The notes beneath the pieces were generated by a model. It made no database searches. It worked only from the letters and a program-made list of their open reading frames with translations, and was not told the origin of the DNA. Of a stretch of DNA of 64,000 nt, positions 925-60,871 are shown in pieces. This DNA comes from a virus: positions 17,680-81,679 of IMG/VR virus record IMGVR_UViG_3300027985_000978; one strand, written 5' to 3'. Made by a program: the position numbers and the translations under genes. The number at the start of each line of letters is the position of its first letter. Within the stretch, counting starts at the first letter, position 1.

Positions 925-3900
925 ATGAACGCTATCGTAAGCAAGGCGGTTGCGTCTGTAATAGCGGCTCGAACACTTGAGCAGCTGTTAGGGACGTATG
1001 ACGCGCTATTTCCATTACTCCACCAGCAGGACGAACCAGCGCCAGTGTTTGGCGTAGAAAAACAATCTGGTGTATCCATCGAACGAACACGAAAAGAAGC
1101 GAACGCGGCGGCGCAAGCTATTCTGAAGCGTGTCGGAACCGATCACACGTTACTGACCGAAGAAGACAAAGCTGTTCTACGCCAGTATTCAGGGTTAGGC
1201 GGGATTGGTGGCTCTATCCATGAATACTACACGCCGCAATGGGTGGCCGAAGGCATTTGGGACGCTATGGCCGCCAATGGCATGGGTGCGGGTAACTTCT
1301 TGGAACCGTCAGCCGGTGCGGGTGTTTTCCACGGAACCAAACCACGCGGCGCAATCATGACCGCAACCGAAATCGATCAAACCAGCTCACAGATCAACCA
1401 GCTGTTACACCCTGAAGATCGCGTCAACAATTCATCCTTTGAAACGCTGGCTGTCAGTTCTGAAGATGGAACGTGGGACGGTGTAGTGGGTAACGTTCCT
1501 TTCGGTGAAACTCGCGGTAGTTATGGCGCACTCGATCCAGAATACGCGCATGTAAAGTATGTCGATGCGTATTTTGTCACTCGTATGCTGGACAAAATCA
1601 AAGCCGGTTCGATGATGTGCGTAGTAGTTCCAATGCGTATCGTGTCCGGCGCAAAATTTAAAGCGTTCCGCAAAGAAATATCTCTCAAGGGCGAATTCTT
1701 AGGTGCACACCGTTTGCCGTCTGGAACGTTCAGCAACAACGGAACGGATACCGCCACAGATATTCTTGTCATGCGTAAGCATCCAGAAGAGTTTTCAGAT
1801 TTGGTGAACTCACGAAAAACCACCGATCTGAAAGCGGCTAACGTGTTATGGGATACATTCATCAATGGCAAATGGTTTGAGACCTCCGAAGGGAAACGTT
1901 TTATCCACGGTGAACAATCTACAACCGGATCAGGAAAGTTTGCCCGTGAAGTAGTTGATCGGGGAAATATCACTAATGCACAGATCAAAGAGAAATTAGC
2001 GCACAAGTTTGAAAGCCGTATTGATTGGTTATCACTGGAACTGTCAGAACCAGTTGCGCCGGTTTACGGTGAAGGTGACGAACGCCTGATTAATGGCCGC
2101 TGGAACCGTCTTGTCAATGGTCAATGGCAGGTTATTTCCCTGACTGCAAGCGACGGTGACACAATCGACGCGGGAACGTATGGCGTGAACTCTATCAGCC
2201 AGCTAACCACCATGATTAATCAATCCCCACTGAATGCACTGGAACTGTCATACGATCAAGTTATGGCTGTTGCGCGTGACTTCCCACGGGTGACAGAAGG
2301 CGTGATCGCTGATGCTATTAAACTTGCGAACGCACAAGATCCGAAGTATCGAGAGCGCATTATCCGTGGCGTGCTGATTGGTCAGCGTATCCGCGACATG
2401 AACGACGAAGTGAACCAGACCGGCATAATTCCGATTGCTACCGCAGCTGAATTGCGCGACTTGGTGAACAACGAGATCGGAAAATATGGTGTTTCAGCTG
2501 GTGATAAGAAGATCGCAGCGCTAACCGGTGGCACTTCTGCCGCTGGCGCATGGAACCAGTTTGTTAGTGCAACGGATATCAACGGCAAATTCTCTGCCCT
2601 GCTTACCGGTACACTGCAACGCGGGGACACGAAAGCCTTTGATGATACCGACGCATCCCAAACTGTCGCCTATTTGTTCGGTCAATTAAACCTGAACCCT
2701 GTCGATTTAAGCGACTTTAACGATCTGTACCGTGGCGCAACTCCACCTACCCTGTCAGACCTTGCCAAAGTATCCGGTATCGCTATCACACCAGACGGCA
2801 TGTTAGCGCCAATGGATCGGGCAACGTGCGGAAATGTCGTTGAAACAACCAACAAACTGATCGCAGCAATGGCAACCACCAGCGATCCGGCGATTCTCAG
2901 TAACTACCAAGCGCAGTTAGACATGATTAACAAGCGCCGTAAGTGGTCTAAAGTCGATGACATTGAGATCACCATGTCTGCTAAATGGCTGCCGCGCCGC
3001 TATGCGCTCGATTTCCTGAAAGAAGTCGGTTATGAGGCTTTTGAATACTCAAAAGTGACCGACGTTGACGGCGAACTGGTTGATGACAAGGAATACAACG
3101 GCTTTGATGGTGTCTTCAGTGGCTACGGTATCCGTGATGGGAAAAAGCGCTCAAACCAAAACGAGCAGTTTGAACGCCAGTTAGAGAACTATCTAAACGG
3201 GGTAACAGTTCGATCCAGTGATGCTGCCGCAGCTGCCGGTTATCGCGCCCGTATTGCTGATATCGAGAAGCGTTTTGCAATCTGGATTCGCCAGCATGAT
3301 GACGTTCAGAAACTAACCGATCTCTACAATGACAAATTCAATGGATACGTCCCATTTGATCATCATGATGGTGATTTAGAGCTAGGGGACGATTACCTGT
3401 CCGGTAAAGTTGTGCCGTTCGGTTATCAGTGTTCTGGCGTGCGCCGTCTGTCTGAAGATGGGCGCGGGATTCTGGCGTTTGATACCGGCCTTGGTAAAAC
3501 TGCATCTGCCCTGTCGCTGGTGGCGTATAACACGAAGCTGGGCCGCGCTAAACGTACTGCAATCGTCGTCCCGCTGGCTGTGTTCGAGAACTGGTATCAC
3601 GAAGCAAAAACAGTTTATAGCGCAAAATTCTTTGAACAGTGTTTGTTTGCTGGCATTGAACCGGTACACACTCAAGACGGCATGATTGAGCAGGAAGCCG
3701 TACTGGATGACGAAGGCAACCCACGAACCGGCGCGAACGGTGAACCACTGACCCGCGATAAGCTCCGCCAGCTGTCCGGCGCTGAAATCACAGCACGCAT
3801 GAACTCAATTCCGCAAACAAACAAAGCTGTCGTTGTCATGACTAAAGAGCAGTTTGCATCTATTCCTATGCGCCCTGAATCAATCGAAGCGCGTTCAGAA

Positions 3901-46515: not shown

Positions 46516-46844
46516 TACAGACCGCCCCCGTCTGCAAAGTGGCGGATCTGTTCACGTAACCAGACAATCGACGGGAACCGGAACACGGAACCAATCGGCA
46601 AAGGATCTGCCTCGTCTTCAACGTCAGCCAGTAAACTAACCACCCAGCGCAGATCGGGCGTCTTATACAATCGCTGGGAAACCAAATCAGGCCGGTATTC
46701 TTCGTCCTGTTTGATCTCGTACTCGGTGTAATCTGTATTTGTCTTGTCGTTCGCCTGCTCTAAGACAGTTTTAAACAGATAGCCTCGTAAAATTTCATCA
46801 TCAACGTTTAGCGGGGATAATCTGGATATATTGCTCATAGCCAC
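46515..46844 (-). CDS. 26: gp26 baseplate wedge (LysM-like)
   Basis: YEI..DE..RPDL.S.RLY....LRWV. Confidence 0.8.
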   Translation of the reverse strand: MAMSNISRLSPLNVDDEILRGYLFKTVLEQANDKTNTDYTEYEIKQDEEYRPDLVSQRLYKTPDLRWVVSLLADVEDEADPLPIGSVFRFPSIVWLREQIRHFADGGGL

Positions 46845-47488
46845 CTTTTCCGTGTACCGGCATAAACTGGATAGTTATCGTCGGTTAGGAATTGGCTTGC
46901 GGTAGGTAATGGGATAAATGTTCGGGCAACATTTTCTTGTTCGCCCATCATGGAAAATAGGCTTTCCAGATAGGCTTCGTGCATCGGGTTTTGACACATA
47001 GCGCCATAGATTGCGATCAGCAATGCACGGCATGGATCTTTGAGTTGTGACCAGTCAATTTCATAAACGGTTTTCCCGTTATCAGTCACCTTCACGTTCA
47101 ACATAGAATCGTTGATCGCGTATTCGTTCTCTCGGCCTTCTGGAAACAGGATACCCCCGACACTGGTTAGTGCGCGGTAGCGTTCCAGCCCTAACGCCAG
47201 TACGGGCCGGTTATCCATTGTTTTGTCATCCAGCCGCACGCCATAACCTAACCCAGCCAGTAGCGACGTTGGATCTTCAACAAACAGGGTTAGATTGCGT
47301 TCTTTGGCACGCTTCACCAGCGTTTCCAGCGTGTTTCGGAGTTTTTTGATAGAACGGGGTAGGGCGTCACATGAAATGACGTGTAAAGCGTTATCCGTGA
47401 GTGTAGCGGTTAGCATCACGGGGGCGTTCTTGGTTGCAATCGTCACGGCAACCACGTTGATCGACGTATTCTGCATGACTAAAACCAT
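46835..47488 (-). CDS. mat: Mat, maturation control homolog (start 47488 or 47476)
   Basis: G..VY.IDW....P...L....Y resembles recalled P1 Mat; adjacent to ref as in P1. Confidence 0.7.
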   Translation of the reverse strand: MVLVMQNTSINVVAVTIATKNAPVMLTATLTDNALHVISCDALPRSIKKLRNTLETLVKRAKERNLTLFVEDPTSLLAGLGYGVRLDDKTMDNRPVLALGLERYRALTSVGGILFPEGRENEYAINDSMLNVKVTDNGKTVYEIDWSQLKDPCRALLIAIYGAMCQNPMHEAYLESLFSMMGEQENVARTFIPLPTASQFLTDDNYPVYAGTRKRWL

Positions 47489-47494
47489 TCTGAT

Positions 47495-47720
47495 AAAAAA
47501 ACAGCGCCGCTAGGGGCGCTGGCGAAACAACGATAAGGAATACAAGCGAACATCCAGACCACTAAAGGAAATTCACCTTTAAGGGTGGGTCGGCGCTTAG
47601 GGGGCTCGTATCAACCTAAACGCCTTCCTTCCCTTAAAGGTGCTCACTCAGCGAGAATGAGAACCCTGTGCGATCTGACTCTTAACTAAACACCGGAAAT
47701 AACAATGATTCAAAGAGCAC
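47495..47720 (-). ncRNA. Candidate structured RNA (sRNA2 or attenuator leader of the mat operon)
   Basis: TTGAAC-17-CATTAT promoter (47755-47727), 69-nt stem-loop at 47574-47642, terminator CAGCGCC/GGCGCTG + U7 (47495-47521). Confidence 0.55.
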
Positions 47721-47735
47721 GTAGTCATAATGCAC

Positions 47736-48437
47736 TTATTGATTAGGAAGTTCAAACAAGTCGATTTTCGGGTATCTTTCGTGCCAGTTTTCCCGCGTCT
47801 TCTGATCCTGTTTTGCCAGTTCAGCGGCGATTAATTCAACCAGCCCCAGCCGTTGCCAGATAACCACCAGCATGTCTTCAGCTGTGCCGAATTGTTTTGT
47901 CCACGCGGCCTTTCCGCCGTGGCTACCCTTGGCATGAGTCGGGATCAAGTCGGGGTATTTTGTCAGGGCTTCTTTGTCGGCTGGCGTGTCGTGATGCCAG
48001 CAACAAACAGGCAAGACTTCAACGTGTGCCAGTGGCGCTGTTCTGCCATTGACGTGGTGCAGACTGATAACCGGCATATCTCGGCCCACGCGGTTACAGC
48101 ATTCACATGACAACTTCCCGATCTGATTCATAACGCGCTTCTCAAAGGCGGTAGGCGTGCGGCCTAACATCCCTTTGCTGGTGGCTGGTTTGGTCTTCTT
48201 GGGTGCTGCCGGTTTGCTGCTGGTGGCTTTGGCTGGTTTTGGTTGCGCCTGTGCTTCTTTGCGCTTGGCGATCTGGTTTTCTCGGTAACGCTGGGCGGCG
48301 GCTAACTGCTTCTCTCGTTGCGCTTGCTGCCATGCTGGATCGGCTCGTTTTGCGCGGTCTTTTTCGATCTGGCGTGCGCGTTGTTTGTTCGCTCGTTCAC
48401 GCTGCTGTTCAAATGTGGTTGTACCTAATTGTCCCAT
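47736..48437 (-). CDS. ref: Ref, RecA-dependent HNH nuclease
   Basis: Basic N-terminus, ADP.W, GRTPTA.E, C..C, SLHH..GRTAP.AH...LP.C.WHH, KYP.L.P.HA.G..GGK. Confidence 0.93.
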   Translation of the reverse strand: MGQLGTTTFEQQRERANKQRARQIEKDRAKRADPAWQQAQREKQLAAAQRYRENQIAKRKEAQAQPKPAKATSSKPAAPKKTKPATSKGMLGRTPTAFEKRVMNQIGKLSCECCNRVGRDMPVISLHHVNGRTAPLAHVEVLPVCCWHHDTPADKEALTKYPDLIPTHAKGSHGGKAAWTKQFGTAEDMLVVIWQRLGLVELIAAELAKQDQKTRENWHERYPKIDLFELPNQ

Positions 48438-53594: not shown

Positions 53595-54092
53595 TTAAAA
53601 TAGTTTCTGTGCCGCTTCATCATCGGCGTACTTGGCTTGGTGCTTCTTGGCTACCTTCCCAGCCTTGGTTAAACACTCCTGAAATGCTGCCACCCTAGCC
53701 AGATCGTCATCAGTTGGTAATCGAGAGATTATTAAACCCTCTGGAATCACGATCCTTGAGTTTGGCGTTTCAAGCACAATGCACATAACGTCCACCCATT
53801 CGCCGTTTACGCTTTTCTTAATGCCGCTAGGGTCACGACTGATTGAATTCACTGTGAAGCGCTTTGAAGCTGACGAAAGGCGATAGCGGCCACCAACAAC
53901 CGCGTCTGTCGCTGGGATTTCAAGAATGGATTCTAAATAGCTGTAGGCGGCCTGACCTCTTTTTGTAAACACCACTTTCGCGCCGTGACATTTGAAACAG
54001 GTGCGCCCGTACATTGAAGTGTATGAATACTCGCCCGTGCCATAACATCTAGGGCAGGTTTCGTGCTCTAAAATATCAATCACTCTAGCCAT
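53595..54092 (-). CDS. Hypothetical protein with DnaJ-like CxxCxGxG zinc finger
   Basis: CPRCYGTG...CFKCHG. Confidence 0.7.
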   Translation of the reverse strand: MARVIDILEHETCPRCYGTGEYSYTSMYGRTCFKCHGAKVVFTKRGQAAYSYLESILEIPATDAVVGGRYRLSSASKRFTVNSISRDPSGIKKSVNGEWVDVMCIVLETPNSRIVIPEGLIISRLPTDDDLARVAAFQECLTKAGKVAKKHQAKYADDEAAQKLF

Positions 54093-54157
54093 GATATGTA
54101 TTCCTTGCTCATTAGAAGGCCACCAGCACGGGCGGCCATGCGATTAATTAGATAACA

Positions 54158-54799
54158 TCAGATGGTGATTTCCTTTAGTTCTGGACAATTAACCCAATCA
54201 TCAAACTCATGCTTCAGTGAGTAATAATCTTCCCTGATCGAACTGATATAGTCGTATGTCCCGCAGCAATACGCCTTCGCCAGTAATGCTGTTCTGATTG
54301 ATTCACGCCACTGGTTCGGCGTTAAATCCCATTCCTGCATATCTCCGTGGTCTGGATTCATCGTTAAGCCTTCCGCCAGCTCTTTGACGCTATTCTCATT
54401 GACGCAAGCCTCAACGAACGGCGACATACCCTGTGCCGCTTCTTCCATCTTGCAAAGCACACCACGGAGATCCAGACCTTCCACCAGCGAATCGACATGT
54501 GCATCTTGCAGAGCGGTTTTAATCAGCAAGCCAGCAATCACGCGGCGTTTCTCTATGCGTTGCATCAATGACACTTCAACCAGACTTGCCGCGATCTCGC
54601 TTATCAGTTCTGACCCGTACCGTTCGCCGGTCATTTCAGCGATCCACGCTAACTTCTCTTCATAATCGCAGTGCTGGTGATAGTCAGTGACTTTTAACTC
54701 TTTGACTGTCTCCAATGGATTGAAAAAGAAGTCATTCGACTTTTCACCGAACGGGAAGTAAACGAGAACGCTGTGTAGGGTTTTATGTACTGTTGCCAT
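54158..54799 (-). CDS. Hypothetical acidic protein
   Basis: 213 aa, RBS AAGGA. Confidence 0.65.
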   Translation of the reverse strand: MATVHKTLHSVLVYFPFGEKSNDFFFNPLETVKELKVTDYHQHCDYEEKLAWIAEMTGERYGSELISEIAASLVEVSLMQRIEKRRVIAGLLIKTALQDAHVDSLVEGLDLRGVLCKMEEAAQGMSPFVEACVNENSVKELAEGLTMNPDHGDMQEWDLTPNQWRESIRTALLAKAYCCGTYDYISSIREDYYSLKHEFDDWVNCPELKEITI

Positions 54800-54860
54800 G
54801 ATGTGTATTCCTTATGCTTCTTGGATTGGTTAGAGCCACCAGCGGCGGCCCTCATGCCTG

Positions 54861-56126: not shown

Positions 56127-56194
56127 GATATAGATTCCTTATCTGGTGGCTGGTGGCGCTGTAGTTGTCCGGTTCAAATGAACCATTGAGATAA

Positions 56195-56327: not shown

Positions 56328-57440
56328 CTACACTTTACCGGCACGCCGGATCGCCATTGCGCTATCTTTTACGAACATATCCCGACAATACCGGATCACC
56401 ATACGTTCACTGGCCCAGCGCCCAGCCTGCATGATCTGAAGGGCGTTGAACCCAGCCGCCGCCAAGTCTTGCGCCGCACCGACACGGGCAGAGTGACCAG
56501 ACAGGCACGGGATACCGTAGTATTGCAGCCCCAGCACTTCCCACACACGGGCGAACACGCGCTCAATGGTTTTCACCGATAGCGGCTCATTACCGGTGCT
56601 TGGTTTGTTGTACCGGTTCACCTTGCCGAAGAGTGGCACGTCTTCACCCAGCTTACGGCCTGACAATGACAGGTAATCAATAATGATACTTACGGCCTGC
56701 CGTGACAGGGCCGCTTTGTCTGGTTCGCCCGAATGGTTTGTTTTGGTGATTGGGATAGTCAAAACACCTGTACCGTCTGAAAACACTTTGATATGACGCC
56801 CCCGAACCCGCGCCAATTCTTGAGCGCGTAGCATGGATTCATAAGCCACGGCCATGATTGCCAGATCGCGCCGGTTCGCTATGCTTTCACTGTATCGCCA
56901 CATATCCACCAACTGATCTAAATTGTGCTCATGAAAGCCTGCCGCCTGCTCTACTGTTTCTTCATGCTGGACTTTGTTTCTGACAATGCCCTCATAAGTA
57001 CCTTTGAATAGTTCGTCATTCGTTGGATCGGGGCAGCCGGTTACTTTATGGATTCTTGAGATCGCCCAGCGGTCAATCGCCAGTGTATTTCTATGCACCA
57101 GCTGGCCGCGTTGTTTGATGTAAATCTCTGCCGTTCCGACACTGGCCGGTAACGAACACGCGCCCACATCGAGACACCAACGATCAAACCGTTCCCATGC
57201 GCTTTTGATAGATTGCATCGTTCTGGCTGAATATCTATCGCCGCGCTCATGGAACCCGATCAAGAACCGGTTGATCGCGTCCTGTACTGGCTGATAGTTC
57301 TGGATCTCAATTCCGCGCAATTGCGCATTAGCAATCAGACCTGAAAGCGCTTCCGTGGTGATATTCTCGAATGCGACCTGATTTAGCACATTTTCCACGT
57401 TGGCTAAATTGCTGGTGGTAGTTACTAAGTTTTGAGCCAT
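56328..57440 (-). CDS. cre: Cre-type tyrosine recombinase
   Basis: AYESMLRAQELAR, TKT, SGHSARVGAAQDL, IMQAGRW...V.RY; P1 synteny near c1 and ref. Confidence 0.92.
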   Translation of the reverse strand: MAQNLVTTTSNLANVENVLNQVAFENITTEALSGLIANAQLRGIEIQNYQPVQDAINRFLIGFHERGDRYSARTMQSIKSAWERFDRWCLDVGACSLPASVGTAEIYIKQRGQLVHRNTLAIDRWAISRIHKVTGCPDPTNDELFKGTYEGIVRNKVQHEETVEQAAGFHEHNLDQLVDMWRYSESIANRRDLAIMAVAYESMLRAQELARVRGRHIKVFSDGTGVLTIPITKTNHSGEPDKAALSRQAVSIIIDYLSLSGRKLGEDVPLFGKVNRYNKPSTGNEPLSVKTIERVFARVWEVLGLQYYGIPCLSGHSARVGAAQDLAAAGFNALQIMQAGRWASERMVIRYCRDMFVKDSAMAIRRAGKV

Positions 57441-58455: not shown

Positions 58456-58597
58456 CACCCCTCTCTTTTGTGCGCTTTGCTTATCTTTTGTCCGGTTCTA
58501 TCCTAATCATATTGATTCTAAAATCCGGTTGTGCGTTACTTGTAACGCACCACTGAACTAAAAAAATAGATGCAACGATAAACAGGAGTAGAGAACC

Positions 58598-59332
58598 ATG
58601 TCACAGGATGTAGCGCTCTTTATGGAGTTTTGCGAACTCCGAGAAGCCATCATTGAAGAGATCAAAGCGATTGCCGTTTTTTCTGAAGAGAAGAACGGTA
58701 AAACCGTGCGCCCGATTGGGGTCATTAAAACCAATGCTGAATATTTTAAATTTGAGAAATATTTAGCAAGGTGGCGTGAACTGGTTAATCAATTAAATGA
58801 AATTAACCCTGTTCGCTATCCGTTAAATGCTGAGAAGTTTTCTTTAATGCCGCAATTATATACCGGCGTTGAATCATTCTCTGTTTATATTTCCCCTGCT
58901 ACGCTCTCTCGCAAATATGAGAAAGCGAAAATAGTTTCCCGCATGGAAAAATATATTGATTCATTATCCCATGATTCCCGTAATACAGGCGACTGGACAA
59001 TTACCAATCGCGTGAAACATGAATTGGAGGTCATGAATAAAGATAAGGAAACCTATTACCGGCTGCGGAATACTTGCAGCACAGATATGACTTGCGTATT
59101 AACGTATGAGAACGGATTAACTGATAAAGTAAAAATCCCGTTTTGCGGCGCGTTATTATTTAATAATGAAAGATTGATAGATTTAAAACCGACGAAAAAA
59201 TTAAATACCCGTACCGACAGTTTTGATTATTTAGGCGTGAACCCTATCGCCTGTTCGTTGTCATTGGCTGGCAACCTGTACCGTGAATCAGAAATAATAA
59301 AAGCGCGGGAACGTCGCGCCATGAGTAAATAA
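58598..59332 (+). CDS. c1: C1 primary repressor homolog
   Basis: LF.EF...R, G..VRP..V, P....GV, IPFCG, PI.C...LYR..EI align with recalled P1 C1; convergent with pacB as in P1. Confidence 0.82.
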   Translation: MSQDVALFMEFCELREAIIEEIKAIAVFSEEKNGKTVRPIGVIKTNAEYFKFEKYLARWRELVNQLNEINPVRYPLNAEKFSLMPQLYTGVESFSVYISPATLSRKYEKAKIVSRMEKYIDSLSHDSRNTGDWTITNRVKHELEVMNKDKETYYRLRNTCSTDMTCVLTYENGLTDKVKIPFCGALLFNNERLIDLKPTKKLNTRTDSFDYLGVNPIACSLSLAGNLYRESEIIKARERRAMSK

Positions 59333-59365: not shown

Positions 59366-60871
59366 TTAAACCTCTTCCGCCATCAAGTCTTTCGCCCAAC
59401 CAGAAACACTCTCCCGTTCTTCGCGCATTTCATCCGTGATGACCATGTTGGCTGGCGTATAATCCGCTAAAAGTGAGAAGCAGTAGGTATCCCAGCGATC
59501 AGGAGATGGTAAGCCTAACTGCTGTCTCATTTTCTCTTTCGGCATCATGCACCACTGGCCGGATTCGTTGATTTTGCACGGCATACGGGACGCCTGATCG
59601 AGCGTCTTCTCATGTCCATCTAGGCGCATCCGTCCCGACTTCACCGCATCCCGCGCCATGATGTTGGCGAACGCACGTTTATTCAGGAACCGGCTCTTAT
59701 CATCCGTATTGAAACACGGCGCACCCCAGCGGATACGGATCACGTTAAACCCAGCCTCTTCAAGAATGGTTGCGGTATCTGCACCAACCCCGTCGCCATC
59801 CACGCAAACCGTGATGTTTGGATATTTTTCTTTGGGATATTCAGCGGCCACCAGCCGCCCGAAATTAACCGGATCAATCGTACCGGCCCATTCTTTAATT
59901 TCAGACGGAACAACACGCCTTTCATATCTTGCACCAGACATCCGCACTAAATTAGCCACAGAACTATCTCGGCCATTCCCCACGTCCACCAGCAACACCC
60001 AGCCCCAGCCTTTTTCTAGTTTAGGCATTGCTTTAGTAGCTTTTTCGCATTCATCCCGACTTAATAAGTTACCGGAAACACTACGCGGAAATTCCCCACG
60101 GACTTTAATTAAATATTCCGGCGCATCCCGACTGCCGCCATATTCCCTTAATTTAACCTTGATAAATTGCACGGTAACTAAAGGCGATTCTTCTGAGTTA
60201 AGTTTTATTGCGGTATAGCCGTCTTTATCGTCTTTATTTCTTTTTGCTAACCGGTGATGTGTGTCATAGAAATAACCGCTTGGGCGTGTCGGCTGGGACA
60301 ATAATAATATTCTGTTATCATCCTGTGTTAATGCGCCGGTAATAACGCCGAATGCTTTGTCAGATACACCTGAAGCCTCGTCAATAATATAAAACAGGTG
60401 ATCGGCGTGCTCACCGGCCAACGATTCTTCATTCCCTAAACGACACCCTTTCGGAGATGTAAACCATACGCCTTTATGCGTGTTCTCGTAGAACATGGTT
60501 TCTGTAATGGTGAAGTATTGACGTATCCACGGATGACGGCGGCAAAGCTCGTTATAATTGATTTTCAGATATTTCCATACAACCTGTTGCACCTGTGCGA
60601 TCTTGTTCGCCACGATGATTACACGGGCATTTGGGAACAACAGCATATACAGCAATACCATGATTGATGTCATGTCTGATTTACCTGTACCGTGCCCTGA
60701 ACTCACCGATGTTTTCGAGCCGGTCTGCTGGGTCGATTCAATGATTAATTCCTGCTGCCAAGTTGGTTCTTTGCCGAATAGCTCCACGGCGGCCTGTATC
60801 CAGTTATACCGGTACTTCATCACCAGTTCGGGATAGCGCGGGTCTTTAGTGATGGTGCGTAGCTTTGCCAT
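59366..60871 (-). CDS. pacB: PacB terminase large subunit
   Basis: SGHGTGKS Walker A, IIDEASG Walker B, DVGNGRD nuclease, SPDRWD. Confidence 0.93.
   Translation of the reverse strand: MAKLRTITKDPRYPELVMKYRYNWIQAAVELFGKEPTWQQELIIESTQQTGSKTSVSSGHGTGKSDMTSIMVLLYMLLFPNARVIIVANKIAQVQQVVWKYLKINYNELCRRHPWIRQYFTITETMFYENTHKGVWFTSPKGCRLGNEESLAGEHADHLFYIIDEASGVSDKAFGVITGALTQDDNRILLLSQPTRPSGYFYDTHHRLAKRNKDDKDGYTAIKLNSEESPLVTVQFIKVKLREYGGSRDAPEYLIKVRGEFPRSVSGNLLSRDECEKATKAMPKLEKGWGWVLLVDVGNGRDSSVANLVRMSGARYERRVVPSEIKEWAGTIDPVNFGRLVAAEYPKEKYPNITVCVDGDGVGADTATILEEAGFNVIRIRWGAPCFNTDDKSRFLNKRAFANIMARDAVKSGRMRLDGHEKTLDQASRMPCKINESGQWCMMPKEKMRQQLGLPSPDRWDTYCFSLLADYTPANMVITDEMREERESVSGWAKDLMAEEV

Follow-up and report, generated by a model that had tools for sequence, protein, structure and literature searches.

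The 64,000-nucleotide (nt) stretch analysed here, the window, comprises bases 17680–81679 of the 81,679-bp IMG/VR virus record IMGVR_UViG_3300027985_000978 and, judging by the genes around the gap between its ref-like and mat genes, is from a distant P1-like phage. This 247-nt gap is filled by an element composed of a promoter, a leader and a terminator, all of whose features lie on the − strand (Table 1). On balance, we consider it probable that the element is a transcribed mat leader with a promoter-proximal terminator serving as an attenuator-type gate. A preliminary description of the window had put forward a trans repressor RNA paired with another RNA, sRNA1, and, as an alternative, an attenuator or antiterminator for the tail operon; the alternative is the best supported option, given the promoter–leader–terminator–mat layout and the family-wide position of the terminator.

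An intrinsic terminator just before mat had been described and was found, ending 6 nt ahead of the first ATG of the gene (47488). Its stem consists of seven pairs, six of them G-C, with a loop of 6 nt (−13.4 kcal/mol), and ends 26 nt before position 1 of the Mat profile; the database protein (MQNT...) starts at 47476. Our own scan of the whole 81.7-kb genome gave 16 terminator-like sites, the mat terminator among them. It is the first one after ref and the last − strand one ahead of the long late-gene block, through which the scan detected no further strong − strand terminator. Baseplate and tail genes are located directly 3′ of mat, which overlaps the next baseplate gene. The Shine–Dalgarno sequence (SD) of mat is weak or absent in the window phage, unlike the strong SD of its relatives.

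The promoter with an operator-like box in its spacer is likewise present as described: the −35 hexamer TTGAAC (47755–47750) and the −10 hexamer CATTAT (47732–47727) are separated by 17 nt. This promoter is missing from the list produced by our promoter scan because it matches 8 of 12 consensus positions, below the scan threshold of 9/12. Between 49692 and 44001, the scan at this cut-off returned no sigma70-like promoter for the − strand. The possibility of an antisense promoter was likewise rejected, as the scan gave no candidate on the + strand. The asymmetric box ACTTCCTAATCAA overlaps the ref stop codon (stop position 47738–47736) and occupies the position that the P1 annotation gives for the C1 operator Omat, where ref ends. 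The box core TCCTAATCWA is enriched in the window, with 15 matches at up to one mismatch versus 5.69 expected (15 was reached in 0 of 100 shuffles), and copies are found upstream of genes, oriented as the gene.

A search with Mat yielded 11 relatives at 45–79% identity. Eight near relatives, representing Aeromonas and Leclercia plasmids and IMG/VR contigs, were collected by profile-based locus searches and by tblastn against plasmids; they leave out the two closest Mat sequences (P0002 and P0003; 76–79% identity; Logan assemblies), and their Mat proteins are 46–60% identical to that of the window (tblastn). Locus searches with the single Mat protein in viral and genome contigs returned nothing, as did the profile search of genome contigs, and the one contig from a metagenome scan with Mat was short, with insufficient sequence upstream of the gene. 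All eight near relatives carry a GC hairpin followed by T7–8 directly before the mat SD. In seven of them, a promoter TTCACA-18-TAATAC surrounds a box ATCCTAACC 75–150 nt upstream; in the eighth, tRNA genes are inserted upstream and the terminator is kept. In the alignment, the relatives match the window at the box/promoter, at the terminator stem (GCGCC/GGCGC) and at the U tract, showing the predicted promoter/box and terminator to be homologous between them. In the A. hydrophila plasmid NZ_CP121796.1 (locus L012, 628–1336), three tRNA genes lie between ref and mat, with the mat terminator retained.

The arrangement extends well beyond these plasmids. A tail-protein profile retrieved 80 further P1-like loci; of 102 sources, 74 had a Mat match and 70 were usable (two self loci, one partial match and one locus with too little upstream DNA were dropped), providing 52 distinct upstream sequences. 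In 39 of these 52, the interval −110..+25 relative to Mat profile position 1 contains a terminator, and in 36 of the 39 its stem ends 9–31 nt before that position; among random 135-nt windows from the same loci, taken as a control, 29 of 1934 contain a terminator. The 39 terminators represent 21 distinct stem-loop sequences, and since many of them are D6-like with one stem in common, the independent lineages should be counted as closer to 21 than to 39.

Most relatives lacking a U tract are of the Vibrio type (L013, L014, L016, L019, L045, L051, L063, L071). In the Vibrio-type relatives, and more weakly in L017, the mat SD and AUG are enclosed in a predicted GC-clamped hairpin at about −20..+25 of the mat start, whose stem shows compensatory changes between lineages (GCGCG/CGCGC, GCGCA/UGCGC, AGCGCUU/AAGCGCU, ACGCUUU/AAAGCGU); for the other relatives without a terminator (L025, L026, L030, L033), no conclusion on a clamp was drawn. 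The comparison shows family-wide conservation of a predicted structure at the mat start, either a terminator or an SD-clamping hairpin, and since the Vibrio-type relatives clamp the SD and AUG instead, restraint of mat expression appears to be the constant theme. Given the family-wide position of the terminator, the conserved function would be exerted in cis, the leader gating or limiting expression of mat and the baseplate genes. In the literature searched, the conservation of the mat-start terminator, P1 included, does not appear, and neither a leader nor a terminator or small RNA (sRNA) is described for mat; Lobocka 2004 and Lehnherr 2001 are outside this scope and may mention the hairpin.

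P1 itself (NC_005856, locus L007) shares with the window the order ref, box overlapping the ref stop, promoter and mat. Its annotation places Omat, a C1 operator, across the ref stop codon, followed ahead of mat by the sigma70 promoter Pmat and the late promoter LPmat with a common −10. A hairpin AAGCCGCCGCUGGUGGCUU at 2787–2805 with the tail UUCUUUUUU (together 2787–2815) is followed by the SD GUAGGGGG and then by an in-frame ATG at 2848. As annotated, this terminator lies inside the first 44 codons of the mat open reading frame (ORF; 2716–3468). However, the Mat profile built from the relatives aligns to P1 only from the ATG at 2848 on, and SJ46 and D6 annotate the short form of Mat. Homology from 2848 and the short form in these two phages indicate that the P1 hairpin probably belongs to a leader and not to coding sequence; the annotated P1 mat start is probably 44 codons too early.

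In the fold predicted for the P1 leader (about 112–114 nt; z = −2.7), a closed domain of two hairpins is followed by some 20 nt of spacer and by the terminator, the same three-part plan as modelled for the window. In both phages, a sigma70-type promoter directed into mat is followed by a structured leader, a terminator-like hairpin and a U tract, after which P1 has an SD and ATG. There are also clear differences. The P1 operator is located upstream of the −35, whereas the window box lies in the promoter spacer; the leader is ~112 nt long in P1 and 226 nt in the window, and apart from UUGUAUU, which both spacers contain, the two show no sequence similarity; mat of P1 forms a monocistronic unit ahead of res/mod, while the window mat heads a baseplate operon; and neither an Lpa homologue nor a P1-type −22 box was detected in the window phage. 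Late transcription of P1 is ascribed to the activator Lpa. Antitermination in P1 is a suspicion of long standing, and PMC10695390 mentions 'strong indications' of encoded antiterminators, with no factor identified and no site defined. A conserved terminator hidden in the annotated P1 mat frame would offer a concrete site to examine in this model phage. Elsewhere in P1, positions 2047–2076 form another terminator-like hairpin, GGCGGCC...GGCCGCC followed by T8, directly before the ref ATG, and the annotated P1ref −10 lies just upstream of this hairpin or within it.

The mat terminator could also be an ordinary operon-end terminator or insulator, ending early cre-to-ref transcripts and shielding the late block; transcripts from Pmat would then leak through constitutively, and the long hairpin region would be an incidental, functionless palindromic insertion. 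Its place as the first − strand terminator after ref agrees with such a role. The 69-nt hairpin of the leader has no homologue in our searches and is absent from the relatives, whose leaders measure only 75–150 nt, and the hairpin before P1 ref suggests that structures of this kind may be generic punctuation. We nevertheless consider an insulator unlikely. The terminator stays at the mat start whatever lies upstream, be it ref, a divergent simB-like gene (D6), tRNA genes, PadR or a transposon; D6 keeps it although the upstream gene is divergent, and there it cannot serve that gene. Moreover, a promoter is present between the upstream gene and the terminator in seven of the eight nearest relatives and in P1, and a terminator placed downstream of a gene's own promoter is not plain punctuation.

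A gate at the mat start fits the lack of a − strand promoter between 49692 and 44001 in our scan, the lack of a later strong terminator and the antiterminators suspected in P1 (PMC10695390). We envisage the following course of events. Once a C1-like repressor leaves the spacer box, host RNA polymerase would start near 47720 and transcribe ~226 nt, which would adopt the three-part structure modelled below, with a hairpin at the 5′ end, then the multibranch domain and the unpaired spacer. Polymerase would then meet the strong intrinsic terminator 6 nt before mat, and read-through transcripts of the ref operon would meet the same terminator. Most transcripts would presumably stop at 47495; only leak-through, or polymerase made terminator-resistant by a presumed antitermination factor of the phage, would enter mat and the baseplate genes, which are coupled to it in translation. 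The terminated 226-nt RNA, if stable, would be a by-product, possibly with an acquired trans function in this phage.

Two known systems resemble such a gate. In the PR′-6S RNA-tR′ module of phage lambda, Q-mediated antitermination lets polymerase into the late genes; as in the window, a promoter near the late genes produces a short terminated RNA (~200 nt), and the late genes lie behind the terminator. The window genome, however, has no Q-family gene, and its promoter would be repressor-controlled, while that of lambda is constitutive. The second system is represented by sRNAs that derive from 5′ untranslated regions by premature termination at attenuators or riboswitches, such as rnTrpL and SreA. 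Here too, one transcription unit gives either a short terminated RNA or the full mRNA, and the short product can act in trans; they differ from the window leader, in which no ligand, leader peptide or alternative fold has been identified.

Several observations weigh against a mat gate. The Q-type antiterminator families PF06530 and PF03589 are unmatched (E ≤ 1) in the 81.7-kb genome, in which P1 Lpa, C1 and Coi also gave no match by tblastn; with neither a Q-type gene nor a detectable Lpa or C1 homologue, the read-through factor is hypothetical. Visual inspection of the sequences and folds revealed no competing antiterminator fold, for which no systematic search was made. The gate also leaves unexplained the structured part of the leader, ~150 nt including the 69-nt hairpin, because it has no counterpart in any relative compared. 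The motif UUCCUUA, which Aeromonas-type leaders have at the corresponding position, is retained here without a mat SD to pair with, which fits an action in trans slightly better than one in cis. Finally, no RNA run is recorded among the sequencing runs listed with the window sequence; the runs that hold it are only DNA runs, labelled hydrothermal vent metagenome or metagenome, and the window may come from a vent metagenome.

The predicted transcript, from ~47720 to 47495, is 226 nt long. An RNA of 226–236 nt folds at −82.2 kcal/mol (z = −4.27; equalled by 1 of 200 shuffles), with a 5′ hairpin, a closed multibranch domain and an unpaired spacer ahead of the terminator. The 69-nt stem-loop with a 12-bp perfect base reported in the preliminary description is indeed found at 47642–47574. 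An exact-stem search revealed no other copy of this hairpin in IMG/VR, the genome contains none except its own inverted arm, and the ref–mat region has no blastn match in phages and plasmids. The comparison with Rfam proposed earlier yielded no family: there are 0 matches at the gathering threshold in the window, the best one below it is a Drosophila scaRNA (E = 0.26), the C4 family is also unmatched, and the scan of the loci of nine relatives gave tRNAs only. A leader peptide was rejected as a candidate; the sole ATG-started frame begins inside the −10 and has no SD, and the leaders of the relatives have no common ORF.

At its 5′ end, the leader contains UGCUCUUUGA, which resembles the boxA of rrn and lambda nut sites. 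The leader might therefore be regarded as a processive antitermination site (nut-, put- or rrn-like), at which UGCUCUUUGA and/or the large stem-loops would load Nus factors or a phage protein, so that only complexes initiated at Pmat pass the terminator and transcribe the ~35-kb late block. This would agree with the location of the sole exact copy of the motif in the window at +2 of the leader, with the lack of further strong − strand terminators in the late block and with the antitermination suspected in P1 (PMC10695390). However, UGCUCUUUGA is predicted to be mostly paired (unpaired probability 0.22) and is not conserved in the leaders of the relatives, ref read-through transcripts would carry the same RNA and hence allow no discrimination, and no Rfam family was matched. 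We regard an antitermination site as very improbable.

The preliminary description had proposed a trans repressor of early genes on the basis of an unpaired stretch, and the underlying complementarity is present in this genome: UGUAUUCCUUAUC matches the ribosome binding sites (RBSs) of 54799, 54092, 56126 and ref (start 48437) over 12, 10, 10 and 7 nt, respectively. A second motif of this kind, AUUUCCUUU, is also present at 47572–47564, though it is partly paired, with a mean unpaired probability of 0.58 computed one base off, for AAUUUCCUU. As a trans-acting sRNA, the terminated 226-nt RNA would pair via UGUAUUCCUUAUC(GUUGUUUC) with the RBSs of the cre–ref accessory genes at 54799, 54092 and 56126, and weakly with that of ref, and shut them off once the lytic programme runs; such a function could coexist with a gate. 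The layout is classical for an sRNA, with a structured 5′ part, an unpaired seed (0.79) and a terminator with a U7 tail, and the three longer complements are perfect and centred on SDs. In addition, a − strand gene outside the window, whose start lies at ~11346 of the genome and 6.3 kb ahead of the first base of the window, has a translation initiation region (TIR), GAAACAACGAUG, with an 11-nt complement in the leader, AUCGUUGUUUC, which directly follows the 'anti-RBS' stretch.

When the 29-nt unpaired spacer was compared with the 95 predicted TIRs of the genome, perfect complements of at least 10 nt were found in 4/95 and one of 12 nt in a single TIR; the same spacer gave matches of at least 10 nt in 0/105 TIRs of an Aeromonas plasmid and in 1/106 of P1. 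Of 20000 shuffled spacers, 107 had one or more 12-nt matches, 1449 had a match of 10 nt or longer, and 3 reached 10 nt with three TIRs or more. However, three of the four targets, which are also the best ones, share a near-identical RBS module (AAGGAAUACAYAUC-AUG) and therefore amount to about one independent match, to which the figure for a single match applies. Its nominal p of ~0.005 is further weakened by the reader's free choice of a stretch over 64 kb, and any UCCUU stretch matches SDs.

Such matches are not conserved either. For the Aeromonas salmonicida plasmid spacer and the P1 spacer, complementarity to their own 105 and 106 predicted TIRs, respectively, does not exceed 8 nt, and a 10-mer complement search in three relatives gave exact matches only at the leader itself, with one-mismatch matches not above the control. 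Pairing in trans would thus not be the conserved function and is possible as a phage-specific addition; the proposed trans repressor is neither contradicted nor supported outside this genome, and we consider a trans-acting sRNA rather unlikely. A precedent is found in the c4 antisense immunity RNA of P1 and P7, a small RNA whose unpaired stretches pair with an RBS. It differs in that c4 is processed by RNase P, whereas the window RNA is predicted from the sequence to be made by termination and is not known to arise by such processing; the window leader has no Rfam C4 match, is not upstream of icd/ant and has one seed versus two. A dual-function mat RNA in P1-like phage-plasmids (P1 among them), combining a gate crossed by antitermination with an anti-SD sRNA that silences the cre–ref accessory genes in the vent phage, seems quite improbable to us. 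If it did exist, a single decision in transcription would turn on the late genes and also shut off the early ones.

A cis anti-SD/SD clamp, which is predicted in some relatives, was rejected here, as the window mat has no SD. The core of the 'anti-RBS' stretch, TTCCTtATCg (47532–47541, −), matches the operator core TTCCTAATCA except for two bases. It was rejected as a second operator, since two mismatches in 10 are often expected by chance; the likeness is probably due to chance, and a weak second operator is conceivable. In the Aeromonas-type relatives, the leader motif TCCTTAC is likewise similar to their own box TCCTAAC. Among the candidate targets, the gene 53595–54092 (−) encodes a 165-aa product that matches the Anti-TRAP zinc-ribbon family (PF15777) below threshold, at 26.8 bits versus a cut-off of 32.

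Table 1. Features of the ref–mat element and of genes and sites discussed with it (window positions).
Feature	Position	Strand	Basis and remarks
Intrinsic terminator	47495–47521	−	Stem-loop 47502–47521 and U7 47495–47501; two scans agree
CU-rich stretch UGUAUUCCUUAUC ('anti-RBS')	47532–47544	−	Mean unpaired probability 0.79 (predicted)
Closed multibranch domain	47556–47677	−	Predicted fold; holds a small hairpin (47643–47661) and the 69-nt hairpin
69-nt stem-loop	47574–47642	−	12-bp perfect base CACCUUUAAGGG/CCCUUAAAGGUG; −36.3 kcal/mol folded alone
5′ hairpin of leader	47678–47718	−	Minimum free energy and centroid structures
boxA-like UGCUCUUUGA	47710–47719	−	About +2 of transcript; only exact copy in window; lead only
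Sigma70-type promoter TTGAAC-17-CATTAT	47727–47755	−	Read from sequence; 8/12 consensus matches
Asymmetric repressor box ACTTCCTAATCAA	47739–47751	−	Putative, from sequence; in promoter spacer
mat (maturation control) homologue	46835–47488	−	tblastn to Mat of P1, P7 and D6, 21–26% identity; phrog_1837
ref-like RecA-dependent nuclease gene	47736–48437	−	PF16786, E 8.8e-21; phrog_2321; stop codon overlaps box
Candidate target RBS AAGGAAUACA	54097–54106	−	Gene start 54092; 10-nt complement
Candidate target RBS AUAAGGAAUACA	54804–54815	−	Gene start 54799; 12-nt complement
Candidate target RBS GAUAAGGAAU	56134–56143	−	Gene start 56126; 10-nt complement
Cre-like integrase	56328–57440
PacB	59366–60871		tblastn with P1 PacB

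The 81,679-bp record carries direct terminal repeats. In the tblastn comparison that gave no match for P1 Lpa, C1 and Coi, only PacB was found, plus PacA weakly. After pacB and on the opposite strand, where P1 has c1, the window contains a 244-aa ORF (58598–59332, +; phrog_1678, function unknown) without tblastn similarity to P1 C1. A copy of the box (58501–58510) lies just upstream of it, and we propose the product of this ORF as a candidate for the repressor binding the TCCTAATCA boxes.

The Mat protein itself has no Pfam or PDB sequence match. In a structure search of the ESM Atlas, Mat (46835–47476) falls near the RNase H-like nuclease domains of terminases, with template-modelling (TM) scores of 0.54–0.57 to clusters that carry PF17289, hinting that it may be a nuclease of the RNase H fold. 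If Mat is a nuclease, the need for its tight limitation would explain a brake at the mat start.

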